A stretch of DNA of 32,000 nucleotides from Candidatus Methylomirabilis limnetica (GTDB taxonomy: Bacteria; Methylomirabilota; Methylomirabilia; Methylomirabilales; Methylomirabilaceae), in NCBI RefSeq assembly GCF_003044035.1, contig NZ_NVQC01000024.1, forward strand, positions 32,773-64,772. Reading direction: 5' to 3'. Both the position numbers and the translations under genes were made by a program. Within the stretch, counting starts at the first letter, position 1. The number at the start of each line of letters is the position of its first letter. Shown in pieces: positions 1,655-31,647 of the stretch. Below the pieces are notes generated by a model. The model was not told the origin of the DNA, did not search any database, and was given only the letters and a program-made list of their open reading frames with translations.

Positions 1655-1792
1655 GTTCCCCCTCACCTTCATCCTCTCCCTCCCCGCTGGGGGGAGAGGA
1701 GATTTTATTATTATCCCTCGCCTCTGGGTGCGGAGCCGCGTCTTTTTTTACCCCTCGCCCCCCGCTGGGGGAGAGGGTGCGGGTGAGGGGAA

Positions 1793-3288: not shown

Positions 3289-3353
3289 CCCGCTTCCTAT
3301 TGTTTTCTAATCTACCCCCAATCAACAGGGGTGTCAAGAATCCACCAAAAGAT

Positions 3354-3534
3354 GGTCTATCTGGTCTATTTGGTCTGTCTGGTCTGTCTGGTCTATTTGG
3401 TCTGGGACGAGAAAGACGGAATAGACCAGAAGGACGGAATAGACCGAAGATGGTCTATCTGGTCTTTCTGGTCCTTCTGGTCATTTGGTCGGTGACGAGA
3501 TAGACGAAATAGACGGAACAGACCGAATAGACCA
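3354..3534. repeat. GGTCTAT-family element, two adjacent long imperfect hairpins built from 9-bp tandem units
   Basis: Units start at 3354, 3363, 3372, 3381, 3390 and 3399 (GGTCTNTNT), and the inverted units AGACGGAATAGACC... run to about 3450. The second module (3452-3534) has the apex TTTGGTCGGTGACGAGATAGACGAAATAGAC. The element ends 2 nt before the rmuC stop codon. Confidence 0.92.
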
Positions 3535-3536
3535 AT

Positions 3537-4925
3537 TTACTCTGCCTCGTCGATATCGAATGCGGTCAGGCGTCGAGGCGCTTGATCGATCGGCTGCAGT
3601 TCCTGGATCTCCTTCTTGCCACCGGCTCCGAGCGCCTGAAACTTTCGGGCCGTGGGGAAGACGCGGCTCTCAAACGAGGCAACCGCGGCGTTATATGAAT
3701 CCACGGCCTTGCCAATGGCCCCACCGACCTTGAGGAGGTGCTCGGCAAGTATCCCCATCCGGTCGGCGAGTTCCTGGCCCAGGGCACAGATGCGCTGGGC
3801 GCTCTCCGCGACGAGTTCCTGTCGCCACCCATAGGCGATGGCCCGGAGTAGGGCGATAAAGGTCGAGGGTGTCGCGATGACGACCTTCTTCGAGATTGCC
3901 GATTCAACCAGAGCCGGATCCTTCTCGGCGGCTGCGGCGAGAAAGGAGTCGTTCGGGATGAAGAGTACGACGAACTCTGGAGCGGCCGCGAACTGATCCC
4001 AGTACTCTTTCGAGGCCAGCTTCGTGACGTGCTGGTTCACCTGTGCCGCATGCTTGAGGAGGGCCACTTCGCGTTCCTCATCCGTTTTGGCTTCCAGCGC
4101 CTCGAGGAATCCTCCGAGTGGGACCTTGGAGTCCACCACTACCTCGCGCCCGGCCGGAAGCTTGACGACCATATCGGGGCGGACACGCCCTTCTTCAGTT
4201 GTCACGCTCTCCTGTTCCACAAAATCGCAGTGGGGCGACATCCCGGCGAGCTCAGCCGTTTTCCGAAGCGCGATCTCCCCCCACCGGCCGCGAACCTGTG
4301 GGGATCTCAGGGCGTTGACCAGCTTGGCGGTCTCACTCTGAAGGGTGGTCTGACTCAGGGCGACTGCACGCAGTTGTTCCCCCACTGTGCTGTACTCTCT
4401 GAGCCGTTTCTCTTCGAGCGCTTTTGTCTCTTGCTGATAAATGGAGAGGGTTTCGCTGAGTGGGTTAATAATAGTCTCGATCGCTTTTCTACGAGCGTCC
4501 AAATCGACAGTAGCTTCATCCTTCAGCGCCTTGAACTTCTCCTCGGCGAGGATGAGGAACCCTGTGTTGTTACCGGCCAGCGCTTCAGCCGCAAGCGACT
4601 TGAATGTATCAGTGAGCCGGGTCTTTGCATCCTCCAGGAGCGCTTTCTGCTCAGTAAGGTTTTTGTCGGTCTCGACGACTCGAGTTTCGGCGGCAGTCCT
4701 GGCTGTCTCAGCCTGTCGTAAATCCTCGCGCAAGGTGTCGAAGTCCTCCCTGGCCGAGGCGAGCTGGATGCGAATCTCCTCAACCCGCGCCTCTGCGGCC
4801 GCGGTTCGCGTCTCCTGATCTCGCAAGATGGAGCCCGCTGCTGCCTTGGTCCGGGCCGCGCTTATCACCCATCCAAACCCGGCGCCGATCACGAGCCCCA
4901 ACAGCAGGATCATCCATTCTGTCAT
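3537..4925 (-). CDS. rmuC: DNA recombination protein RmuC
   Basis: 462 aa. It has an N-terminal TM helix, a long Ala/Glu/Arg coiled-coil region and a C-terminal RmuC nuclease-like domain (PDMVVKLPAGREVVVDSK, FVVLFIPNDSF). Confidence 0.85.
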   Translation of the reverse strand: MTEWMILLLGLVIGAGFGWVISAARTKAAAGSILRDQETRTAAAEARVEEIRIQLASAREDFDTLREDLRQAETARTAAETRVVETDKNLTEQKALLEDAKTRLTDTFKSLAAEALAGNNTGFLILAEEKFKALKDEATVDLDARRKAIETIINPLSETLSIYQQETKALEEKRLREYSTVGEQLRAVALSQTTLQSETAKLVNALRSPQVRGRWGEIALRKTAELAGMSPHCDFVEQESVTTEEGRVRPDMVVKLPAGREVVVDSKVPLGGFLEALEAKTDEEREVALLKHAAQVNQHVTKLASKEYWDQFAAAPEFVVLFIPNDSFLAAAAEKDPALVESAISKKVVIATPSTFIALLRAIAYGWRQELVAESAQRICALGQELADRMGILAEHLLKVGGAIGKAVDSYNAAVASFESRVFPTARKFQALGAGGKKEIQELQPIDQAPRRLTAFDIDEAE

Positions 4926-4952
4926 ATTGAGTTCCCTAGAAAATGTCTAACT

Positions 4953-5102
4953 GGTCTATCTGGTCATTTGGTCTGTTTGGTCTGTTTGGTCTATTTGGTC
5001 TGTTTGGTCGGTGACGGAGTAGACGAAATGATCCGCTGTCGATTTGGTCGGTGACGAGATGGACGAGATAGACCAAATAGACCAGATAGACGAAATAGAC
5101 CC
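4953..5102. repeat. GGTCTAT-family element, second locus (long hairpin with duplicated apex motif)
   Basis: 9-bp units (one of 8 bp) start at 4953, 4962, 4970, 4979, 4988 and 4997. Apex motifs TTTGGTCGGTGACGGAGTAGACGAAAT (5003-) and TTTGGTCGGTGACGAGATGGACGAGATAGAC (5043-5073) are present. The inverted arm ATAGACCAAATAGACCAGATAGACGAAATAGACC runs to 5102. Confidence 0.92.
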
Positions 5103-5121
5103 AAGCCGGCCCATGCGGTCA

Positions 5122-9871: not shown

Positions 9872-10203
9872 CGGCGCGGTTTGCCTCTGGACTCAACGTC
9901 TCCGCCTGCCTGTTGCGTGCCTATACCGTCGATCTGTTTGAGGAGAGCAATCGCACTCAGTTCGTAGCTATGGCGCGCCTGCTCATAGTCTTCGAGACTG
10001 AGCCTCCCAGCCTGGTAATCGAACTCAAGCTCCTTGATTGCGGCATATACCATTTGCTTCTCGGCCAGGAGCTCCTGCAACTCGGTCTGTTCTGACCACA
10101 GTGGAACTCCATTAGACGATCTGAAGAACGGCATGATTACCGGCAAGAGGGCGAGAAGAACTAGCAGGATGATAATTAGTATTAACATTATGGTTGGGTT
10201 CAA
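9868..10203 (-). CDS. small membrane protein, CcmI/CycH N-terminal-like (one TM helix plus helical tail)
   Basis: Hydrophobic N-terminus (LILIIILLVLLALLPVIM), then LQELLAEKQMVYAAIKELEFDYQAGRLSLEDYEQ. This resembles the LxELxxDxxxGxL segment of CcmI. The stop overlaps the mqnE ATG. The start is ambiguous: TTG 10203 lies inside the repeat array, and ATG 10188 is the alternative. Confidence 0.5.
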   Translation of the reverse strand: MNPTIMLILIIILLVLLALLPVIMPFFRSSNGVPLWSEQTELQELLAEKQMVYAAIKELEFDYQAGRLSLEDYEQARHSYELSAIALLKQIDGIGTQQAGGDVESRGKPRR

Positions 10204-10323
10204 CGTTCAATGTTCAACGTTCAACGTTGCACCCCGAACATTGCACGTTGAACATTGCACTTTGAACGTTGCACGTTGAACATTGCACTTTGAACGTTGC
10301 ACGTTGAACATTGAACGTTGAAC
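10198..10323. repeat. array of 18 consecutive heptamers (GTTCAAC x4, then GTTGAAC/GTTGCAC variants) with a 28-bp higher-order repeat
   Basis: The heptamer phase is unbroken from 10198 to 10323. The first four units are the reverse complement of the later GTTGAAC units, so a hairpin can form. The segments 10254-10281 and 10282-10309 are identical 28-mers. Confidence 0.93.
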
Positions 10324-10335
10324 TTTCTATGATCA

Positions 10336-18128: not shown

Positions 18129-18249
18129 GTAGTACAGGGTAGAGGGTTGAGGGTATAGGGTTTAGAGTGCAGGGAAAGGACGGGAGCACAACTTATTCAT
18201 ACTTCTTTTCTCCTATCTTATCCTCTACCCTCTACCCTATAGCCTATAC
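18129..18249. repeat. hairpin element with arms made of xxAGGGT heptamers
   Basis: The left arm is ACAGGGT AGAGGGT TGAGGGT ATAGGGT TTAGAGT GCAGGGA (18134-18175). The spacer is about 35 nt. The right arm carries inverted ACCCTCT/ACCCTAT units (18211-18249). The element starts 3 nt from the lipB ATG and ends 9 nt from the lpdA stop. Confidence 0.9.
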
Positions 18250-19733: not shown

Positions 19734-19826
19734 CCCCCCCCCCATCCTCACCTTCCCCCTCATGGGGGGGAAGGGACCCCTTACGCGACCTCCTCCCCCC
19801 TTGAGGGGGAGGATTGAGGTGGGGGG
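19734..19826. repeat. G/C-rich nested-palindrome element, same architecture as 1655-1793
   Basis: The outer arms are C10-ATCCTCACC and GGATTGAGGTGGGGGG. The inner hairpins are CTTCCCCC..GGGGGAAG (19752-19773) and TCCTCCCCC-CTTGA-GGGGGAGGA (19791-19813). Confidence 0.8.
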
Positions 19827-21096: not shown

Positions 21097-21123
21097 TGTG
21101 CGTATGTCTCCTCTTCTTATTTT

Positions 21124-21251
21124 GGTCTATTTCGTCTATCTGGTCTATTTCGTCTATCTGGTCTATTTCGTCTATCTGGTCTGTTTGGTCTATCTGGTCT
21201 GTTTGGTCTGTGACGAAATAGACTGAATAGACGAGAAGGACGGAATAGACC
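21124..21251. repeat. GGTCTAT-family element, third locus, with an 18-bp higher-order repeat
   Basis: GGTCTATTTCGTCTATCT occurs three times (21124-21177), followed by GGTCTGTTT/GGTCTATCT units. The apex is TTTGGTCTGTGACGAAATAGACTGAATAGAC (21202-21232). The shorter inverted arm ends in ATAGACC, whose last base starts the pdhB stop codon. Confidence 0.92.
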
Positions 21252-24386: not shown

Positions 24387-25286
24387 TCATCTGTTGACCT
24401 GTCCCGCCTGGTCGCGAGGAATACGACTACCCTCTTCACCCTTACAGCCGGACGCGGTAGTGCGGGAGGCAGATACGGCGGCGAGCAACTGTTCGAACTT
24501 TGCCTCTGGCACTGCTGACCTGCCAAGCCCGTCTGATCGGAGCCCAGGAGTGCCATGGTAGTCAGATCCGCCGACTGCCAATAGACCGTATCTCAGGCAC
24601 GCTCGCTCGTAACGGAATAGCGATTCGGTATCGTGTTCCAGGTGATACACCTCCAGTCCCATAAGCCCATGCTGCACGAGAGATGGAATAATCTCGTCGT
24701 GACCGTACTGCCCAGGATGCGCAAGGGATGGCACGCCTCCAGCTTCCTTGATGGTACGGATCACTCCGGTCGCAGGAATTCTGGAGCGTTCCACGTAGCC
24801 TGGCTTGCCCGTAGTCAGGTATCGGTCAAACGCCTCCTTCATCGACGTCACATATCCGCGCCTGATCATCGCCTGTGCCACATGGGGACGCCCAACCGAG
24901 GAGCCTAGCGCCATACTCAAGACCTCATCAGCGTCCAGCGGGAGACCAAGAGCCCAGAGCTTCGCGATCATCCGATGGGCCCTCTCGATTCGGTCGTTAC
25001 GGGAGGAGGCAAGGAATGCGGCAAGTTGGTTATCGTCCGGATCGATGAAATGCCCCAGAATGTGAATCTCCAGGTCCCCCACGTGCGCGGTAATCTCGAC
25101 GCCTGCCACGACCTGCAGGCCCACCTGCGAGGCCTCCGCCACCGCCGCTGGAAGACCCTCCAGGGTGTCATGATCGGTAACGGCCAGGACTGAGATATTG
25201 CAGTCCTTGGCGAAGCGAACCAATTGTTGCGGAGAGAGGACGCCGTCAGAAGCAGTCGTGTGGGTGTGCAGATCGATAAGGCGCAT
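24387..25286 (-). CDS. PHP-domain metal-dependent phosphoesterase (TrpH/YciV-like)
   Basis: N-terminal IDLHTHTTASDG and further His/Asp ligand blocks (VTDHD, GVEI, AHP, GGSDYHG). 299 aa. Confidence 0.85.
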   Translation of the reverse strand: MRLIDLHTHTTASDGVLSPQQLVRFAKDCNISVLAVTDHDTLEGLPAAVAEASQVGLQVVAGVEITAHVGDLEIHILGHFIDPDDNQLAAFLASSRNDRIERAHRMIAKLWALGLPLDADEVLSMALGSSVGRPHVAQAMIRRGYVTSMKEAFDRYLTTGKPGYVERSRIPATGVIRTIKEAGGVPSLAHPGQYGHDEIIPSLVQHGLMGLEVYHLEHDTESLFRYERACLRYGLLAVGGSDYHGTPGLRSDGLGRSAVPEAKFEQLLAAVSASRTTASGCKGEEGSRIPRDQAGQVNR

Positions 25287-25292
25287 CGCGTG

Positions 25293-25320
25293 AGCTATTA
25301 GCTATTAGCTATTAGCTGCT
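25293..25320. repeat. AGCTATT x3 plus AGCTGCT heptamer array at the fdhD/PHP gene junction
   Basis: Read directly from the sequence. It encodes the last codons and the stop of fdhD (QQLIANS*) and places stop codons in all six frames. Confidence 0.9.
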
Positions 25321-26107
25321 GGATATGGGACAGGCGGCTGGTCGCCACCCGCTGTGGAAGCAGACGCTCGGGGTGGCTATAGACATTAAATCCTTCGCCC
25401 CGGCAGTAGCCGATCACGGTGATGCCGAAGCGCTTGGCCGCGGCAATGGCGAGGCTGGTGGGTGAGGTTCGAGAGATGACAATTGGGGTCCGCATGTGGG
25501 CCCCCTTACGAAGCATCTCAGACGAGATGCGACCGGTGGAGAGGAGGATATTGCCGGCAGTCGTAATCCCCTGCTGAAGTGCTTCGCCGTGGATCTTATC
25601 CAGAGCGTTATGTCGGCCGACGTCCTCGGCGACAAGCAGCAGGCTCTTGCCGTCGCTCAGGGCGGCGGCGTGAATGCCACGCGACTCCCGATAGAGATGC
25701 GCCGCGGCATACAACTGTTTCATGAGATCGAACGGTTGCTCCGGGCGCAGGATCGCCTCCTCTGGGAATGCTTTAAACCCCTCCATCGGCATGCCGAATG
25801 TGATACCTCCGGTGCACCCGGATGTCAGGATTCGGTGACTCGGGGGGGTGAATGCCTTGGTCAGTCTGACGTCTGCCACCGCCTCCTCTGTGAAGACCTC
25901 CAGCGAGTTAACCTCATCGAGCTCCTGGATGATCCCCTCAAAACTCAAAAAACCCAGGACCAGGCAATCGAGCTTCACCGGCGTACACATCAACGTCGCC
26001 AGCTCACGACCGTTGACAAAGATCGTGAGGGGATGCTCCCCCACCACTGGAATCTCTACCGTCTCGTACGATCCACCGCGGTACCGAACGATTCGATGTA
26101 TGGACAT
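25298..26107 (-). CDS. fdhD: formate dehydrogenase accessory sulfurtransferase FdhD
   Basis: FdhD blocks GRHNALDK, SGCTGG and SRTSPTSLAI. The start is taken as ATG 26107 (MSIHRIV...), with GTG 26125 as the alternative. Confidence 0.88.
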   Translation of the reverse strand: MSIHRIVRYRGGSYETVEIPVVGEHPLTIFVNGRELATLMCTPVKLDCLVLGFLSFEGIIQELDEVNSLEVFTEEAVADVRLTKAFTPPSHRILTSGCTGGITFGMPMEGFKAFPEEAILRPEQPFDLMKQLYAAAHLYRESRGIHAAALSDGKSLLLVAEDVGRHNALDKIHGEALQQGITTAGNILLSTGRISSEMLRKGAHMRTPIVISRTSPTSLAIAAAKRFGITVIGYCRGEGFNVYSHPERLLPQRVATSRLSHIQQLIANS

Positions 26108-26108
26108 A

Positions 26109-26315
26109 CTAGTCCCAGAGGGCACTGATGAAGTGCCCTACGCCATACCATGCAACCGTGACCAATAGCCCGATCGCCATCATCTCGACCTCATCTTCCG
26201 AAAAGCCCTTGCTCCGGTAGATCTAGCGCATAAAGACGACCTCGCGAACGGCTCGTCCCTTCGGAGAATGCCAACTCTCCTCGATTGCAGCACTCCCGGC
26301 GCTAGCCTCGTTCAT
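26109..26315 (-). pseudogene. 68-codon frame with one in-frame TAG; a gene remnant or a 24-aa membrane peptide coupled to fdhD
   Basis: Hand translation gives MNEASAGSAAIEESWHSPKGRAVREVVFMR * IYRSKGFSEDEVEMMAIGLLVTVAWYGVGHFISALWD *. The in-frame TAG is at 26225-26223. The final stop lies 1 nt before the fdhD ATG (TAGTATG). Confidence 0.3.
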
Positions 26316-26353
26316 TGCCGCGCCACTCGGGAGGGGTCCGCACGCCAAACCTC

Positions 26354-26782
26354 TTATTCGCCCATTACCTGGAGTTGGATCTGCCGGTCTCTTGGCCCGT
26401 CCAGCTCGGCGAAGATAATCGACTCAAAGGTGCCGAGACTCATCTCCCCGTCCACCACAGGAATCGAAAGCTGTCGGCCAAGCAGGAGGGAGCGAAGGTG
26501 CGAGTCGGCGTTGCTTCGATCACAATCAGAGTAATTTGGATCGTTGTGGCGATAGCCGTCATGCTCATTGATCAGGCGGTCCAGCAGGAGCTGGATGTCA
26601 TGAAGTAGAGCCTCCTGCCACTCATTGATGAACAATGCAGTCGTCGTGTGAAGGGAACTGAGGGTGAGCAACCCCTGTTTGATCTCATGCCGCTGAAGAA
26701 GATCTCGCACACGCTTTGTCAGATCCGTGAACTGGAGTCGCTCCTCCGTAGTCACCGTAAAGGTTTCGTGCCTGATCACCAT
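26354..26782 (-). CDS. yjbQ: YjbQ/UPF0047 family protein (secondary thiamine-phosphate synthase-like)
   Basis: 142 aa from ATG 26782, with GGAGGGAGG upstream. Family-typical blocks are LHTTTALFINE, DGYRHND and NADSHLRSLLLG. Confidence 0.8.
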   Translation of the reverse strand: MVIRHETFTVTTEERLQFTDLTKRVRDLLQRHEIKQGLLTLSSLHTTTALFINEWQEALLHDIQLLLDRLINEHDGYRHNDPNYSDCDRSNADSHLRSLLLGRQLSIPVVDGEMSLGTFESIIFAELDGPRDRQIQLQVMGE

Positions 26783-26932
26783 GCCTCCCTCCGTTGATTT
26801 GCCGAACTCTTCACAGAGATGCCTACCGCCAAAGACAGCAACATCCCCACCCCTCAAACCCAGACTTATACCACTCTCGGCTATAAACGCGATCCCTCCA
26901 TACTGACTTCACGCCCGCTCGCCTTGAGTCAG

Positions 26933-27394
26933 CTACCAGTCAGCGTGGAGGTCAGGCCGCTGCTTCAGCGCCTCCGCTAGTGGCGTCATCAGGCGATCCT
27001 TTCCGTACACGAAGCCGCCCCTGTTGTAGGAGGCAAGCTCGTACTGTTTCCCCAGCACAATCGCCTCCTCCGGGCAGGCCTCCTCACAGTAGCCGCAAAA
27101 GATGCAGCGCAGCATATGGATCTTGTACACCTTCGCGTAGCGCTCACCCCTGGAGTGACGCTCTTGCTCGGTGTTCTCGGCTGCCTCAACATAGATCGCA
27201 TCGGCAGGACAGGCGACGGCGCACAGTTCACAGCCCACACACCGCTCCATCCCGTCCTCTCCCACCACGAGCATGTGCAGACCACGGTAGCGAGGCGCAA
27301 GCGGTAGCCGCTCTTCCGGATAGGAGACCGTCACCGGCTTCCGGAAGATATGCTTGAATGTCGTCGCCAGCCCCTTGAGAATCTCGCCAATCAT
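26933..27394 (-). CDS. nuoI: NADH-quinone oxidoreductase subunit I (NuoI/TYKY, 2x[4Fe-4S])
   Basis: Canonical N-terminus MIGEILKGLATTFKHIFRKPVTVSYPEE and two ferredoxin motifs, CVGCELCAVACP and CIFCGYCEEACP. The start is at ATG 27394 with AAGGGTGG upstream. The ORF-track extension runs into the repeat element. Confidence 0.9.
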   Translation of the reverse strand: MIGEILKGLATTFKHIFRKPVTVSYPEERLPLAPRYRGLHMLVVGEDGMERCVGCELCAVACPADAIYVEAAENTEQERHSRGERYAKVYKIHMLRCIFCGYCEEACPEEAIVLGKQYELASYNRGGFVYGKDRLMTPLAEALKQRPDLHADW

Positions 27395-27412
27395 CGTCGC
27401 CACCCTTGACGC

Positions 27413-27575
27413 GTAACTACTCAGGTGTTTAGACTGAAGGCTGAAGACTGAAGGTTCTAAATTGCCTCGCAAGGCACGAGTCGAGCCATTCAAGACCTTT
27501 TCGGAGTTTTATATGATCACGCATGACTTACCCCTAAAAGCCTTCAGCCTTCAGCCTATCTACCTGAGTAGCTAC
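27413..27575. mobile_element. MITE-like element: about 35-bp terminal inverted repeats containing CTGAAGG heptamers, flanked by an 8-9 bp direct duplication
   Basis: The left end is GTAACTACTCAGGTGTTTAGACTGAAGGCTGAAGACTGAAGG. The reverse complement of the right end is GTAGCTACTCAGGTAGATAGGCTGAAGGCTGAAGG. (C)CTTGACGC occurs immediately outside both ends (27404-27412 and 27575-27583). No ORF lies inside. Confidence 0.7.
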
Positions 27576-27599
27576 CTTGACGCAACACGCGCGACTTCC

Positions 27600-28145
27600 C
27601 TATGCCGTCCTTCGCCAAGGGAGGTGGAAGAGGCCCTGGCTGCTCGGCCGTTCCTTGGCGATCTTTTCCTGCAACAGCATGATCCCATGGATCAGCTGCT
27701 CCGGCCTGGGCGGGCAGCCGGGAACATAGACATCCACCGGAACAACCTGATCCACACCCTGAACGATGGTATAGGTGTTGAAGATTCCGCCGCAGGAGGC
27801 ACACGCGCCCATGGCGATCACCCACTTTGGCTCAGGCATCTGATCGTAGATCCGTCTCAGGACTGGGGCCATCTTGCGGCTCACGCGGCCGGCCACAATC
27901 ATCAGGTCGGACTGACGTGGCGACCCACGAAAGACCTCCGCCCCGAATCTGGCAAGATCGAAACGCGACGCGCCCGTTGCCATCATCTCAATAGCACAGC
28001 AGGCAAGCCCGAAGCTCGCCGGCCAGATCGACGACTTCCTCGCCCAATTGATCAGGCTATCCAGGGTTGTGAGGAGGAGGCCCCGCTCAAATTCCTCCGC
28101 TTCGGCCTTGGAGGGCAGGATGTCGTTCTCCGTCAACTGAAGCAT
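27600..28145 (-). CDS. nuoB: NADH-quinone oxidoreductase subunit B (NuoB/PSST, N2 cluster)
   Basis: Motifs [18 protein letters not shown] and GCPPRPE carry all four N2 cysteines. 181 aa, with GAGGA 8 nt upstream of the ATG. Confidence 0.9.
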
Positions 28146-28158
28146 ACGATGTATCCTC

Positions 28159-28306
28159 GTAACTACTTAGGTGTTCAGGCTGAAGGTTGAAGGTGATGCA
28201 TTATCTCGCACAGCACAAATCAAATGCCAGAAGTTTTTTGCGATCACTGCTTTATACCTAACAGCCTTCAGTCTTCAGCCTTCAGTCTATCTACCTGAAT
28301 TGTGAC
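28159..28306. mobile_element. second, more diverged copy of the CTGAAGG-armed element
   Basis: The left end is GTAACTACTTAGGTGTTCAGGCTGAAGGTTGAAGG. The right arm is CCTTCAGTCTTCAGCCTTCAGTCTATCTACCTGAATTGTGAC. The internal part is recognisably homologous to copy 1 (ATTATCTCGCACAGCAC versus ATTGCCTCGCAAGGCAC). I can see no flanking duplication. Confidence 0.6.
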
Positions 28307-28308
28307 AA

Positions 28309-28611
28309 TCAGCAACCACAGTCCGCCTTCGGGTTGGGGTTCTTCAGGCTGAAGCCGGCCCCCTGTAAGCCGTCGATATAGTCGATCTCGGAGCCGGCCA
28401 GGTAGGTGTAGCTCTGCGGGTCCACCAGGACCTTGACACCGTTCGTCTCGAAGACTTGATCGGCCGCCTGGGGGTGGTCGAACTCCATCTCGTAGGAGAG
28501 GCCGGAGCAGCCACCGCCGATGACGCGGACGCGCAAGCCTTCTTCAGAATTCTCCTGCGTCTTGAGCAAATCAGCCACTTTCGTTGCAGCCGACTCGGTA
28601 AGGGTAATCAT
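28309..28611 (-). CDS. iscA: A-type iron-sulfur cluster carrier (IscA/ErpA/HesB family)
   Basis: 100 aa from ATG 28611, with AAGGAGG 6 nt upstream. The family cysteines are in GGGCSG and the C-terminal DCGC. The ORF-track N-terminal extension is unsupported. Confidence 0.88.
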   Translation of the reverse strand: MITLTESAATKVADLLKTQENSEEGLRVRVIGGGCSGLSYEMEFDHPQAADQVFETNGVKVLVDPQSYTYLAGSEIDYIDGLQGAGFSLKNPNPKADCGC

Positions 28612-28710
28612 TGGGACCTCCTTATTATTGAGAGCTTTTGGTCGACGCCTCGGCTCCTCGCGAAGAGCTCGTGCCGTTAGCTCACACGAACTATGGCACA
28701 CCTTCGACAC

Positions 28711-30348
28711 CTACATCGTGCTGATAAACTGCCCGCTACTTAATCCCTGCACAAGCTTGTAATAATGGTAGTGAATGATACAGTTTACGATGTATCCGCT
28801 TACAAAACTTGGCAGGGTTTCTACCTTTAATGCCCGCCATAGTCGTTGGCAATACTCGCGTCGTAAATCCTTCTCCTTAACGCTCTTGATAAGCCGGTAC
28901 ATTAACACTACCGCAACAGCGGCATTCATGACCTCATACTTCACTCGCAGCCATGGATGCCGTTTCAAGTACTTCACGCCGCCTAACTGTCCCTGTCCCA
29001 AATACCCCCTAAGATACAGTGCCTCTAAACGGTAAAAGTACGCATTGACATCATACACCGATTGCATGGTACTGATATAGCCATCCAGCAGTTGCCGACG
29101 GCTTAGGTTCTGCGGAATGACATTTGTCCCAAATTCTGTGATATCAGACGGATCGAGACGACCTTCCTTGTTTAATCGGTCATACAAGGGTGTTTTAGGG
29201 GTGGCATAGAGTAACCCGATCATCGCGTGAGGAATATAGGCCTCTGAGAGGAACTCCTGTTGCGCTCGGAAGATCGTCGCATCGTCATGATCGAATCCAA
29301 CAATCATGCCACAGGTGACCTCAATACCGGCGCGCTGAATTATATGTACGCGATCCAGAAGACTGCCCGCCGCCGGCCTGACATTGTGATGCTTCTTCGT
29401 CTCGCGTAACGAGTCTTCATTTGGAGTCTCAATTCCGATAAAGAGCCCTTCGATGTTCGCATCGGTCATCAAGCCCATAAGCTCGTCGTCTTCCGCTAGA
29501 TCGAGCGTGGCTTCCGTAAAGAACCTAAATGGATATGCGTACTCCTCTTGATACTTGACGATGTCTCTGAGCACAACTTTAATGGCAGCCTTATTCCCAA
29601 TGAGATTGTCGTCGACGATGAACACTTGTTTCACGCGTTGAACACGCAAACTGTCGAGTTCTGCCAGAACTTGCGCGCTCGTTTTTAATCGGGGGAGACG
29701 TCCAAAGGTTACAATGATGTCACAAAATTCGCAAAGGAAGGGACAGCCCCGGGAGATTTGAATACCCGCATAAAAGTAATCCTGCATCTTAAGTAGATCA
29801 AAGCGTGGCGTGGGAACGCGGGTCATGTCCGATCTTGTGCTTTGTTCGTAGCGTCGTTTCCACCTACCCGCTTGCCAATCATGTAAGAATGCGGGCCACG
29901 ATTCTTCCGCTTCTCCCACAAATATGACGTCCGCCAAATCTTCAAAGTAGTCTTCCTGGACCGTAACCCACGCGCCCCCGACAACCGTAAAGCAGCCCCG
30001 CTTCTTCAATTCGCAAAGAATGTGTTTCATGCGGAAACGCTGAACACTCATCCCGGTCACGCCAATAATGTCCATGTCCGCCAAGGCGTCATAGTTAATG
30101 GACTCTACGTTTTCATCAATCAGCGTAACCACATACTCCTGTGGCGTCAGCGCTGCGAGCAGCGGCAGCGCCGCGACCGGCGTGATCGCCCGCTTGCCGA
30201 CGATGGCTAATGCATACTCTTGCCCCCAAAATGAAACCTCAAATCGTGGACTAATGATCGCAATGCGAGTAATGCCTTCTCGTCCACCTTGTGTGCGCCG
30301 GGGTTTCTCTTGGGCCTCCTCAAGGGCCATCGAGGTTTCCTTTTTCAT
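28711..30348 (-). CDS. B12-binding-domain radical SAM protein with long C-terminal extension (DUF4070-type architecture suspected)
   Basis: N-terminal Rossmann-like B12-binding region (IAIISPRF..., IIGVTGMS) and radical SAM motif SRGCPFLCEFCD. The C-terminal domain of about 150 aa is rich in Tyr/Leu. Hand counts on five 60-nt lines give 38-50% G+C, against 60-65% in the neighbouring genes. The start is ATG 30348 or ATG 30330 (MALEE...; the latter has AAGGAA upstream). Confidence 0.75.
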   Translation of the reverse strand: MKKETSMALEEAQEKPRRTQGGREGITRIAIISPRFEVSFWGQEYALAIVGKRAITPVAALPLLAALTPQEYVVTLIDENVESINYDALADMDIIGVTGMSVQRFRMKHILCELKKRGCFTVVGGAWVTVQEDYFEDLADVIFVGEAEESWPAFLHDWQAGRWKRRYEQSTRSDMTRVPTPRFDLLKMQDYFYAGIQISRGCPFLCEFCDIIVTFGRLPRLKTSAQVLAELDSLRVQRVKQVFIVDDNLIGNKAAIKVVLRDIVKYQEEYAYPFRFFTEATLDLAEDDELMGLMTDANIEGLFIGIETPNEDSLRETKKHHNVRPAAGSLLDRVHIIQRAGIEVTCGMIVGFDHDDATIFRAQQEFLSEAYIPHAMIGLLYATPKTPLYDRLNKEGRLDPSDITEFGTNVIPQNLSRRQLLDGYISTMQSVYDVNAYFYRLEALYLRGYLGQGQLGGVKYLKRHPWLRVKYEVMNAAVAVVLMYRLIKSVKEKDLRREYCQRLWRALKVETLPSFVSGYIVNCIIHYHYYKLVQGLSSGQFISTM

Positions 30349-30356
30349 AACGAGAA

Positions 30357-30398
30357 CGGTTCGCTATCGTATCGCCGATCTACACATACGACGAACCG
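30357..30398 (-). other. intercistronic stem-loop between the cysteine desulfurase and radical SAM genes
   Basis: CGGTTCG (30357-30363) pairs with CGAACCG (30392-30398) and TCGTAT (30367-30372) pairs with ATACGA (30386-30391), with a 3-nt bulge and a 13-nt loop. Confidence 0.5.
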
Positions 30399-30420
30399 CG
30401 TGTCTCTCACGCCATCCCCC

Positions 30421-31647
30421 TTAGCATGCGTGAAGACTCCTTTGCGTACCTTTTACGTCGATCCCCTCAAGCGCCATGTCGTACAAGGGTGAAAGCGCCC
30501 GCAGACGAGCCACGCTCTCTATCACCCTCGCGGAGACATAGTCCACCTCTTCCTCAGTATTCGACCGGCCGAAGCCGAAACGGATGCTGGCGTGCGCCAG
30601 CTCTGCGTTCAGACCGAGCGCCAGCAGGACGTACGAGGGCTCAAGCGTAGCGCTGGTGCAGGCAGAACCGGAGGAGACGGCAATCCCCTTGAGTGCCATG
30701 AGCAGCGACTCCCCCTCGACAAACCCAAACGACACATTCAGGTTGCCGGGAAGGCGATCGGTCGGATGACCGTTAAGGTGCAGGTAATCAAGCTTGGACC
30801 AGAGGTCATTCCGCAAGCGCTCTCGAAGCGCGAGGAGCCGCGCAGGCTCGGTCTGAAGCTCACGCTCGGCGAGGGCGCAGGCCGCGCCGAAACCGACGCA
30901 TCCGGGAACATTGATCGTCCCGGAGCGACGGCCCTTCTCGTGGCCGCCCCCATCCATCTGGGGGACTAGCTTGACGCGAGGCTTTGTCATCCGCACATAG
31001 AGCGCGCCCACTCCCTTCGGGCCATAACATTTATGCGCCGACGCCGAGAGGAGATCGACCTGCCAGTCGTCCACCGAGAGCGGCAGTTTGCCCACATACT
31101 GGGCGGCGTCGGTATGAAACAGTACGCCGTGGCGCTTAGCAATCCGGCCAATCTCAACAATCGGTTGCAGCGTCCCGATTTCGTTGTTCGCCGCCATGAT
31201 TGATATAAGAATCGTTTCCTTCCTGATCGCTCGCTCTACGTCGCCCGGATCGACCCGCCCCGTTCGATCTACCGGAAGGTAGGTGACCTGACAGCCCTCC
31301 TGTTCCAGTCGCTTACAGGTGTCGAGGACGGCGTGATGCTCAATCCGAGAAGTGATGAGGTGCCGACCCTTCTCCCGGTAGGCGGCGGCCACCCCTTTTA
31401 TAGCGAGATTATTCGACTCCGTGGCGCCGCTCGTCCAGACGATCTCCGCCGCTTTACAGCCAAGTAAGTGTGCGACCTGGGCACGGGCTTGTTCCACTGC
31501 CTCCTCGGCCACCCAGCCAAAAGGGTGGCTGCGAGAGGCCGGGTTGCCGAACCGCTCACAGAAGTACGGACGCATCGCCTCGAACACCTCCGGGGCGACT
31601 GGCGTAGTCGCCAGATGATCCATGTAGATCGGAAGAGTGATTGCCAT
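30421..31647 (-). CDS. iscS: class I cysteine desulfurase (IscS/NifS-type, PLP-dependent)
   Basis: PLP lysine in [12 protein letters not shown] and the active-site loop SSGSACTS. Also [15 protein letters not shown] and an IscS-like C-terminal tail. 408 aa. Confidence 0.9.

Follow-up and report, generated by a model that had tools for sequence, protein, structure and literature searches.

An IS66-type MITE in the nuoB-nuoI spacer of Candidatus Methylomirabilis limnetica

Background

ISDge4 of Deinococcus geothermalis is a member of the ISBst12 group of the IS66 family that is bounded by the terminal inverted repeats (TIRs) GTGACTACTCAGCA and GTAACTGCTCAGCA and by an 8-bp direct repeat (PMC12898284). 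Classical IS66 ends read GTAAGCGTCC... (PMC12888890). In addition, an IS66-like element was delimited in this work on the Geobacillus plasmid pHTA426 (L129, 14107-15741), with the tips GTATCTATTCAGCCC and GTAACTATTCAGCCC, the duplication GACGAGTT and a single 485-aa protein that matches PF03050 (DDE_Tnp_IS66) and zf-IS66. The element described below resembles ISBst12-group elements such as ISBst12, ISDge4 and that of pHTA426 in its tips beginning with GTAACTAYTCAG, its 8-bp duplication and its imperfect TIRs. However, those elements are 1.5-2.6 kb long and encode a DDE_Tnp_IS66 transposase, whereas this one spans 163 bp and carries no gene. Moreover, its arms contain tandem CTGAAGG heptamers that most single-ORF IS66 members do not have.

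[quoted passage not shown] The position inside an operon and the very stable hairpin are common to both elements. On the contrary, the duplication of the present family is 8 bp, the comparison with Chunjie being one of descriptions and not of TIR sequences.

The element also recalls the REP and BIME repeats, which are short, intergenic, palindromic and transcribed within operons. REPs are 20-40 nt long, are associated with RAYT (Y1) transposases and do not duplicate their target. The TIRs, the 8-bp duplication and the empty sites of the present element led to the rejection of a REP.

Taken together, the 163-bp element is very probably a MITE with ISBst12-group IS66 ends that was recently inserted into a 34-nt nuoB-nuoI spacer and duplicated the 8 bp CTTGACGC.

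The element and its target site

The window, that is the whole stretch of 32,000 nucleotides that was analysed, holds a 163-bp non-coding element at 27413-27575 between nuoB and nuoI. All genes of this part of the window are on the minus strand, and the features are the following.

26933-27394, minus strand: nuoI, the gene downstream of the spacer (NCBIfam NF004537, 197 bits against a cutoff of 163)
27405-27412, no strand: left copy of the target-site duplication, CTTGACGC (GCGTCAAG in gene orientation), present once in the empty alleles L002, L004, L006 and L008
27413-27575, no strand: element copy 1, with one GTTYAG-type and one RGATAG-type end, missing from near-identical contigs
27413-27449, plus strand: left TIR, with the tip GTAACTACTCAGGT, the spacer GTTTAG and CTGAAGG-type heptamers at 27434-27454
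27539-27575, minus strand: right TIR, with the tip GTAGCTACTCAGGT, the spacer AGATAG and heptamers at 27539-27557
27576-27583, no strand: right copy of the duplication, CTTGACGC, an exact repeat of the left copy
27600-28145, minus strand: nuoB, the gene upstream of the spacer (NCBIfam NF005012, 258 bits against a cutoff of 116; Pfam PF01058)
28159-28306, no strand: element copy 2, 148 bp, older and diverged, between an erpA-like gene and nuoB

The tips, GTAACTACTCAGGT and, as reverse complement, GTAGCTACTCAGGT, agree at 13 of 14 positions, the same score as in the initial annotation, and begin with the GTAA that marks the IS66 family, in its ISBst12-group form GTAACTAYTCAG. The arms are imperfect terminal inverted repeats that measure 37 nt each and are 84% complementary, and the inner part of both is indeed built of CTGAAGG-type tandem heptamers, as had been noticed from the letters. 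The first 14 nt of the left TIR are those of the tips of autonomous IS66-type elements, and the right TIR agrees with the consensus end of the family at 33 of 35 positions. Compared with shuffled versions of the window, the tip 14-mer is found 3 times against 0.18 expected and the 13-mer CTGAAGGCTGAAG, with up to two mismatches, 9 times against 0.98. A copy from Methylomirabilis sp. bin48 (L049) is 87% identical to the element over 145 nt.

The 8-mer CTTGACGC flanks the element exactly on both sides and occurs one further time in the 32 kb. It had been proposed that the duplication is 8 bp, or 9 bp if the preceding C is counted. The repeat of the 9-mer CCTTGACGC is genuine, but its second copy starts at the last base of the element. 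Among the perfect cases listed, a match at the ninth base is seen in just 6 of 34 on one side and 4 of 34 on the other, roughly as often as chance would give. The true length is therefore 8 bp; the 9-bp version was discarded and the extra C in the window is a coincidence.

The nuoB-nuoI spacer is 205 nt long here. Removing the element and one duplicate (171 nt) leaves the 34 nt that had been calculated beforehand, and a spacer of this very length is found in the contigs with an empty site. The insertion point lies upstream of the nuoI ATG by 10 nt plus the 8-bp duplication, so that the start codon is 10 nt past the downstream duplication. In gene orientation, the last bases of the duplication, AAG, and the GGTGG that comes next make up the motif AAGGGTGG upstream of the nuoI start. 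Because the duplication restores GCGTCAAG beside GGTGGCGACG-ATG, this purine-rich motif, presumed to be the ribosome-binding site, is unchanged. The insert may be tolerated for this reason, the sequence just upstream of nuoI being re-created by the duplication.

At 90% identity or more, the NuoB protein falls into one cluster with its counterpart in Candidatus Methylomirabilis lanthanidiphila. In the region 24387-31647 of the window, read from the gene table of the contig L001, nuoB and nuoI are adjacent and stand without the remaining nuo operon. Their neighbours are genes for cysteine desulfurase-like, radical SAM/DUF4070, ErpA-like, YjbQ and FdhD proteins, an iron-sulfur and cofactor setting that is unusual for complex I subunits.

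Older and nested copies, and the RNA fold

Eight contigs (L001-L008), fetched by exact match to the NuoB protein, were used for comparison of alleles. The second copy of the window, at 28159-28306, has an intact left tip, GTAACTACTTAGGT, and a decayed right tip, ACCTGAATTGTGAC; no duplication was found in its flanks. It was seen in all contigs that span the spacer between the erpA-like gene and nuoB (L001, L002, L003, L005 and L007), the shorter L004, L006 and L008 extending only partly into it. In L003, which belongs to a strain 99.6-99.9% identical to the window, a third copy of 168 bp (4815-4982) is nested in copy 2 at the place corresponding to window 28245-28252. A perfect 8-bp duplication, AAGCAGTG, stands on either side of this copy, and its heptamers are a mixture of CTGTAGG and CTGAAGG.

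In contigs of the M. lanthanidiphila type (L230-L232, about 1390-1480), a short hairpin with CTGAAGG arms and mutated tips (GTAGAAAGACAGGTGGAGAGGCTGAAGG...) is located directly upstream of nuoB. Judged by its letters, it resembles what an old MITE would leave behind, and its place relative to nuoB is that of copy 2 in the window.

As RNA, the nuoB-nuoI spacer is predicted to fold at -90.5 kcal/mol (z = -7.2), and this stability follows from the inverted repeats alone. No terminator-like site, defined as a GC-rich stem with a T-run, was detected in 27200-28500, and the covariance models of Rfam 15 gave no match up to E = 1 in 27000-28600. The element was on these grounds rejected as a terminator or a known RNA family. 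In the same way, the search for a sense-strand promoter in the element gave no significant match, and a promoter-like match at 27406-27435 (plus strand, 9/12) was dismissed, as it runs antisense to these genes and is no more than chance would give. The element is most likely transcribed along with the two genes, in the form of a long hairpin.

Such a stable fold could mean that the hairpin is primarily a regulatory RNA of the host, acting as a processing or stability site or as an attenuator, or that it was exapted as one. The older copy directly upstream of nuoB in all contigs spanning that spacer, and the decayed one at the same place in M. lanthanidiphila-type contigs, are in line with this explanation. 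Nevertheless, it is improbable: the presence of the element varies among near-identical strains, its copies adjoin unrelated genes in many phyla, neither an Rfam match nor a terminator-like site was found and the inverted repeats by themselves yield the fold.

A family across metagenome-assembled genomes

The end pattern CTACTYAGGTNNNYAGRCTGAAGG was found in at least 120 stretches when species-representative genomes were scanned. The matches listed come from Nitrospirota, Desulfobacterota, Nitrospinota, anammox Planctomycetota, Methylomirabilis (Methylomirabilota), Elusimicrobia and a few Pseudomonadota, as well as from one Dehalococcoidia single-cell genome and one Ca. Methanoperedens bin. 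In the latter record (L085, 245-330), the sole archaeal one among the matches listed, the copy is short and degenerate. Its contig is AT-rich, and the genes beside it encode TPR proteins and a protein in which CxxCH (haem-binding) motifs are numerous. For this reason an archaeal host is mentioned here as doubtful, a binning error being plausible.

Among the matches listed, pairing of the termini gave 93 elements, the shortest of 63 bp and the longest of 315 bp, with lengths peaking near 172 bp. The initial annotation had suggested looking for duplications around other copies, and these exist: 34 of the 92 scorable copies listed, a number that includes the window copy, have perfect 8-bp flanking duplications, all 34 of them different, and 10 more have one with a single mismatch. 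When the boundaries were shifted by 1-10 nt, none of these 92 listed copies matched. As the duplications differ from copy to copy, CTTGACGC is target DNA and not part of the element consensus. Within the same listed set, the targets that were duplicated are rich in AT, with a GC content of 30% where the host loci have 46%, and 3 of 44 reconstructed target sites fall inside ORFs, compared with 75% of random positions.

The two ends of the listed copies differ systematically. An RGATAG-type end is paired with a GTTYAG-type or CACGTAGTCAGG-type end in 27 of the 44 listed copies with duplications, and the same end type is present twice in only 2 of these 44. Unlike ends are expected if an element derives from an IS, whose left and right ends are distinct, and would not be expected of a simple palindrome. 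Between listed copies from different phyla, similarity reaches 70-90 nt inward at 78-88% identity, which points to horizontal spread.

Other heptamers, namely GGTTCAC and CTGTAGG, also stand behind the same tips among the matches listed. For instance, GGTTCAC-type heptamers follow GTAACTACTCAGGT tips in other MAGs (L076 4242-4331, L081, L116 and L070). In a Desulfobacteraceae MAG, a 276-bp MITE (L125, 5871-6146) has tips, GTAACTATTCAGCCACAGAT, that are nearer to the pHTA426 and ISDge4 type and holds a nested CTGAAGG-type end, so that several IS66-type MITE lineages occur in this one MAG. Three loci considered as autonomous elements, L050 (termini 2.9 kb apart), L053 and L081, turned out to be separate MITE copies that flank ordinary genes. 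Finally, scanning IMG/VR with the end pattern gave no match, and in the plasmid and phage collections searched by BLAST the element had nothing but chance matches of 27-30 nt.

Autonomous elements with matching termini

The initial annotation had reported no transposase in the window, and no IS66-type coding potential was found there. Searching the window and at least 120 MITE loci by tblastn did not reveal any IS66-type transposase. Genes beside unpaired MITE termini were also considered and set aside, being those of secretion ATPases, aminotransferases, TPR proteins and others.

The autonomous IS with the same termini that had been called for was found in other metagenomes and not in a Methylomirabilis genome. 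It belongs to the single-transposase elements of the ISBst12 group of the IS66 family. Through relatives of the pHTA426 transposase, 80 metagenome loci were fetched. Most of them contain a 1.5-1.6-kb element whose tips are both GTAACTACTCAG, with G or C next and at most two mismatches, and many have perfect 8-bp duplications. One of them, L162, has GTAACTACTCAGGT at both ends and the duplication AGCAACTT. The 8-bp target duplication is thus common to the MITE family and to autonomous IS66-type elements.

Starting from the locus L176, a tight clade of 2.6-kb IS66-type elements (L210-L226) was reached, whose proteins are 71-86% identical to each other. Their tips read GTAACTRCTCAGGTAGGC and they have 8-bp duplications, for example in L211, L217 and L224. 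They encode a DruA-like ORF of 287-292 aa (PF14236, a Druantia protein) that overlaps the start of the transposase gene. This ORF (L176 243-1118; L210-L224) stands where IS66 elements normally have TnpA/TnpB.

At their right ends, the members of this clade have subterminal repeats that are short and in tandem: GTAACTACTCAGGTGAGTAGGCTGTAAGCTGTAGGCTG in L176 (GGCTGTA repeats), CAGGAT repeats in L210 and L224, and GTAACTGCCCAGGTGGGTAGGCTGAAGGCTTTCAGG in L225 and L226. The end of L225 includes TAGGCTGAAGGCT, as does the window MITE; in L225 one full heptamer is followed by CTTTCAGG, and the left end of this element is cut off by the contig. Compared with the MITE consensus end, the right end matches at 27 of 30 positions in L225 and at 26 of 30 (30 of 35) in L176, and the BLAST E-value of the MITE ends against the L176 end is 1.6e-7 in the local set. 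From these terminal alignments, the 2.6-kb clade with the DruA-like ORF appears to be the closest autonomous relative found. It shares with the window MITE the GTAACTRCTCAGGT tips, the 8-bp duplications and the subterminal repeats, the latter being seen at the right end only and not at both ends as in the MITE, and none of its members was traced to Methylomirabilis.

A perfect CTGAAGG tandem was absent from 91 IS66-type loci, in which related repeats were seen only in L225/L226 and L176, and no autonomous element with CTGAAGG repeats at both ends was present among the IS66-type loci examined. The interior of the MITE has no detectable similarity with the IS elements compared, only the terminal 45 nt or so matching, and a direct parent was not found among them. 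Termini are thus shared with autonomous IS66-type elements at family and subclade level, no partner being found in the same genome. The IS66-type loci were collected by protein similarity, and likeness of tips is to be read at family level and not as a proof of partnership.

Target duplications of 8 bp are also made by IS families other than IS66. The MITE could hence be moved by another such family, for example ISL3, IS1595, IS6 or IS256, with a coincidental likeness to IS66, all the more since a partner transposase was not found in a Methylomirabilis genome. However, the tips are identical at 14 of 14 positions with many IS66-type elements, and the match extends to 26-27 of 30 positions in L176 and L225. 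The tips of those other families start differently (GG...) in the ISfinder summaries, which makes this explanation very improbable.

Empty and filled alleles

The contig L001 (ENA ERZ4201063 NODE_362) is 99.99% identical to the window and, like L003 and L005, has the filled allele with a 205-nt spacer. The empty site that had been anticipated in relatives exists: L002, L004, L006 and L008 have a 34-nt spacer with one target copy, GCGTCAAG(G), that reads GGAAGTCGCGCGTGTT-GCGTCAAG-GGTGGCGACG and then ATG. Aligned with the window, these empty alleles break precisely at 27412/27575 with an overlap of 9 nt. Their flanks are 98.0-99.9% identical to the window, L004 reaching 99.9% over 6.2 kb. In parallel, the more distant Methylomirabilis lineages (L227-L232) also have a 34-nt nuoB-nuoI spacer, without any trace of the element.

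Presence and absence by itself gives no direction, and the flanking direct repeat is able to mediate deletion. The element might then be ancestral, and the 34-nt alleles might result from precise deletion between the CTTGACGC repeats through excision or slippage. Deletion was nevertheless rejected as the direction of the polymorphism on the 34-nt spacers of the more distant Methylomirabilis. With the 8-bp duplications that differ across the family, which argue for insertion, and with the fresh nested insertion in L003, an ancestral element is highly improbable. Insertion is thus the favoured direction: the outgroup spacers make the filled state the derived one, and the existence of near-identical contigs and of other Methylomirabilis species with an empty site makes the insertion recent. 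The two adjacent spacers occur in three states among near-identical strains, so that transposition is recent and probably ongoing.

There is next to no chance that the insert is a repeat-induced chimera: metagenome assemblies may mis-join at repeats, but three independent assemblies (L001, L003, L005) have the filled allele and four (L002, L004, L006, L008) the empty one, with exact junctions and a clean duplication.

Other repeat-armed hairpins of the window

Other intergenic hairpins of the window have arms made of tandem repeats.

3353-3534, 4945-5104 and 21121-21250: hairpins with TGGTCTATY arms, which are pure tandem 9-mers and their complement
10198-10326: hairpin with GTTCAAC arms, of about 18 tandem 7-mer units
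18132-18249: hairpin with GGGTAGA arms, of tandem 7-mers GGGTAGA/GGGTTGA

The initial annotation had linked the heptamer-armed hairpins of the window to mobile DNA. This link is valid for the CTGAAGG type, of which the second copy at 28159-28306 is an example. It does not extend to the TGGTCTATY, GTTCAAC and GGGTAGA hairpins, around which neither IS66-type tips nor flanking duplications were detected in the window. The TGGTCTATY hairpins are about 88% alike, the one at 3353-3534 being a tandem pair. As they have no unique tips or flanking duplication, they would constitute a separate repeat family. The contigs of other strains extend over about 21.2-27.4 kb of the window, where they include only the edge of the hairpin at 21121-21250, and no length polymorphism was observed in this part.

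A connection of the other repeat-armed hairpins to the MITE family is possible, because same-tip MITEs with GGTTCAC-type heptamers exist elsewhere and because a tip-decayed CTGAAGG hairpin is present upstream of nuoB in M. lanthanidiphila-type contigs. Two other spacers of the window (1659-1790 and 19738-19826) contain C-rich/G-rich inverted repeats (CCCCTCACC...GGGTGAGGGG) with arms of 32-33 nt that are 76-78% complementary.

Mechanism and significance

The element is short and has no transposase gene, it has TIRs and a duplication of fixed length and variable sequence, and it exists in multiple copies (two in the window, a third in L003 and at least 120 stretches in MAGs) and as empty sites. 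It has the ends and the duplication length of the ISBst12 group, and it moves. The initial proposal of a transposase-type insertion of a non-autonomous element is in this way supported by the empty sites, the varied 8-bp duplications and the IS66 termini.

It is most likely moved in trans by a DDE transposase of the ISBst12 group that would be encoded elsewhere in the genome or in the community. This enzyme would bind the 14-bp tips and possibly also the subterminal heptamers, alone or with a DruA-like protein, the heptamers being candidate protein-binding sites. The element would be cut or copied, and then integrated through an 8-bp staggered cut.

A bolder and rather unlikely idea is that, in a cross-phylum IS66 MITE family, the interchangeable heptamer arrays (CTGAAGG, CTGTAGG, GGTTCAC) form a recognition code for the DruA-like protein whose gene adjoins that of the transposase in the 2.6-kb elements. 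The tip-less hairpins in the spacers of this genome would then be decayed or expanded remnants of such elements. If this were true, transposition in one IS66 subclade would be directed by a protein homologous to one of a defence system.

In the searchable literature, neither the element sequence nor an IS66-derived MITE was found described, which is weak evidence of absence, and the tip sequence matched solely unrelated primers. A widespread and apparently unnamed repeat of sediment and groundwater bacteria can be assigned to the IS66/ISBst12 group. From a practical point of view, the MITE family is usable as a strain marker, and it is a cause of metagenome contig breaks and mis-binning. Its very stable hairpins should not be taken for riboregulators. 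The element itself is a standard non-autonomous transposon of an ordinary kind. It provides a clean and dated case of MITE activity in a nitrite-dependent methane oxidiser, Candidatus Methylomirabilis, with three insertion polymorphisms within about 1 kb among strains that are 98-99.9% identical.
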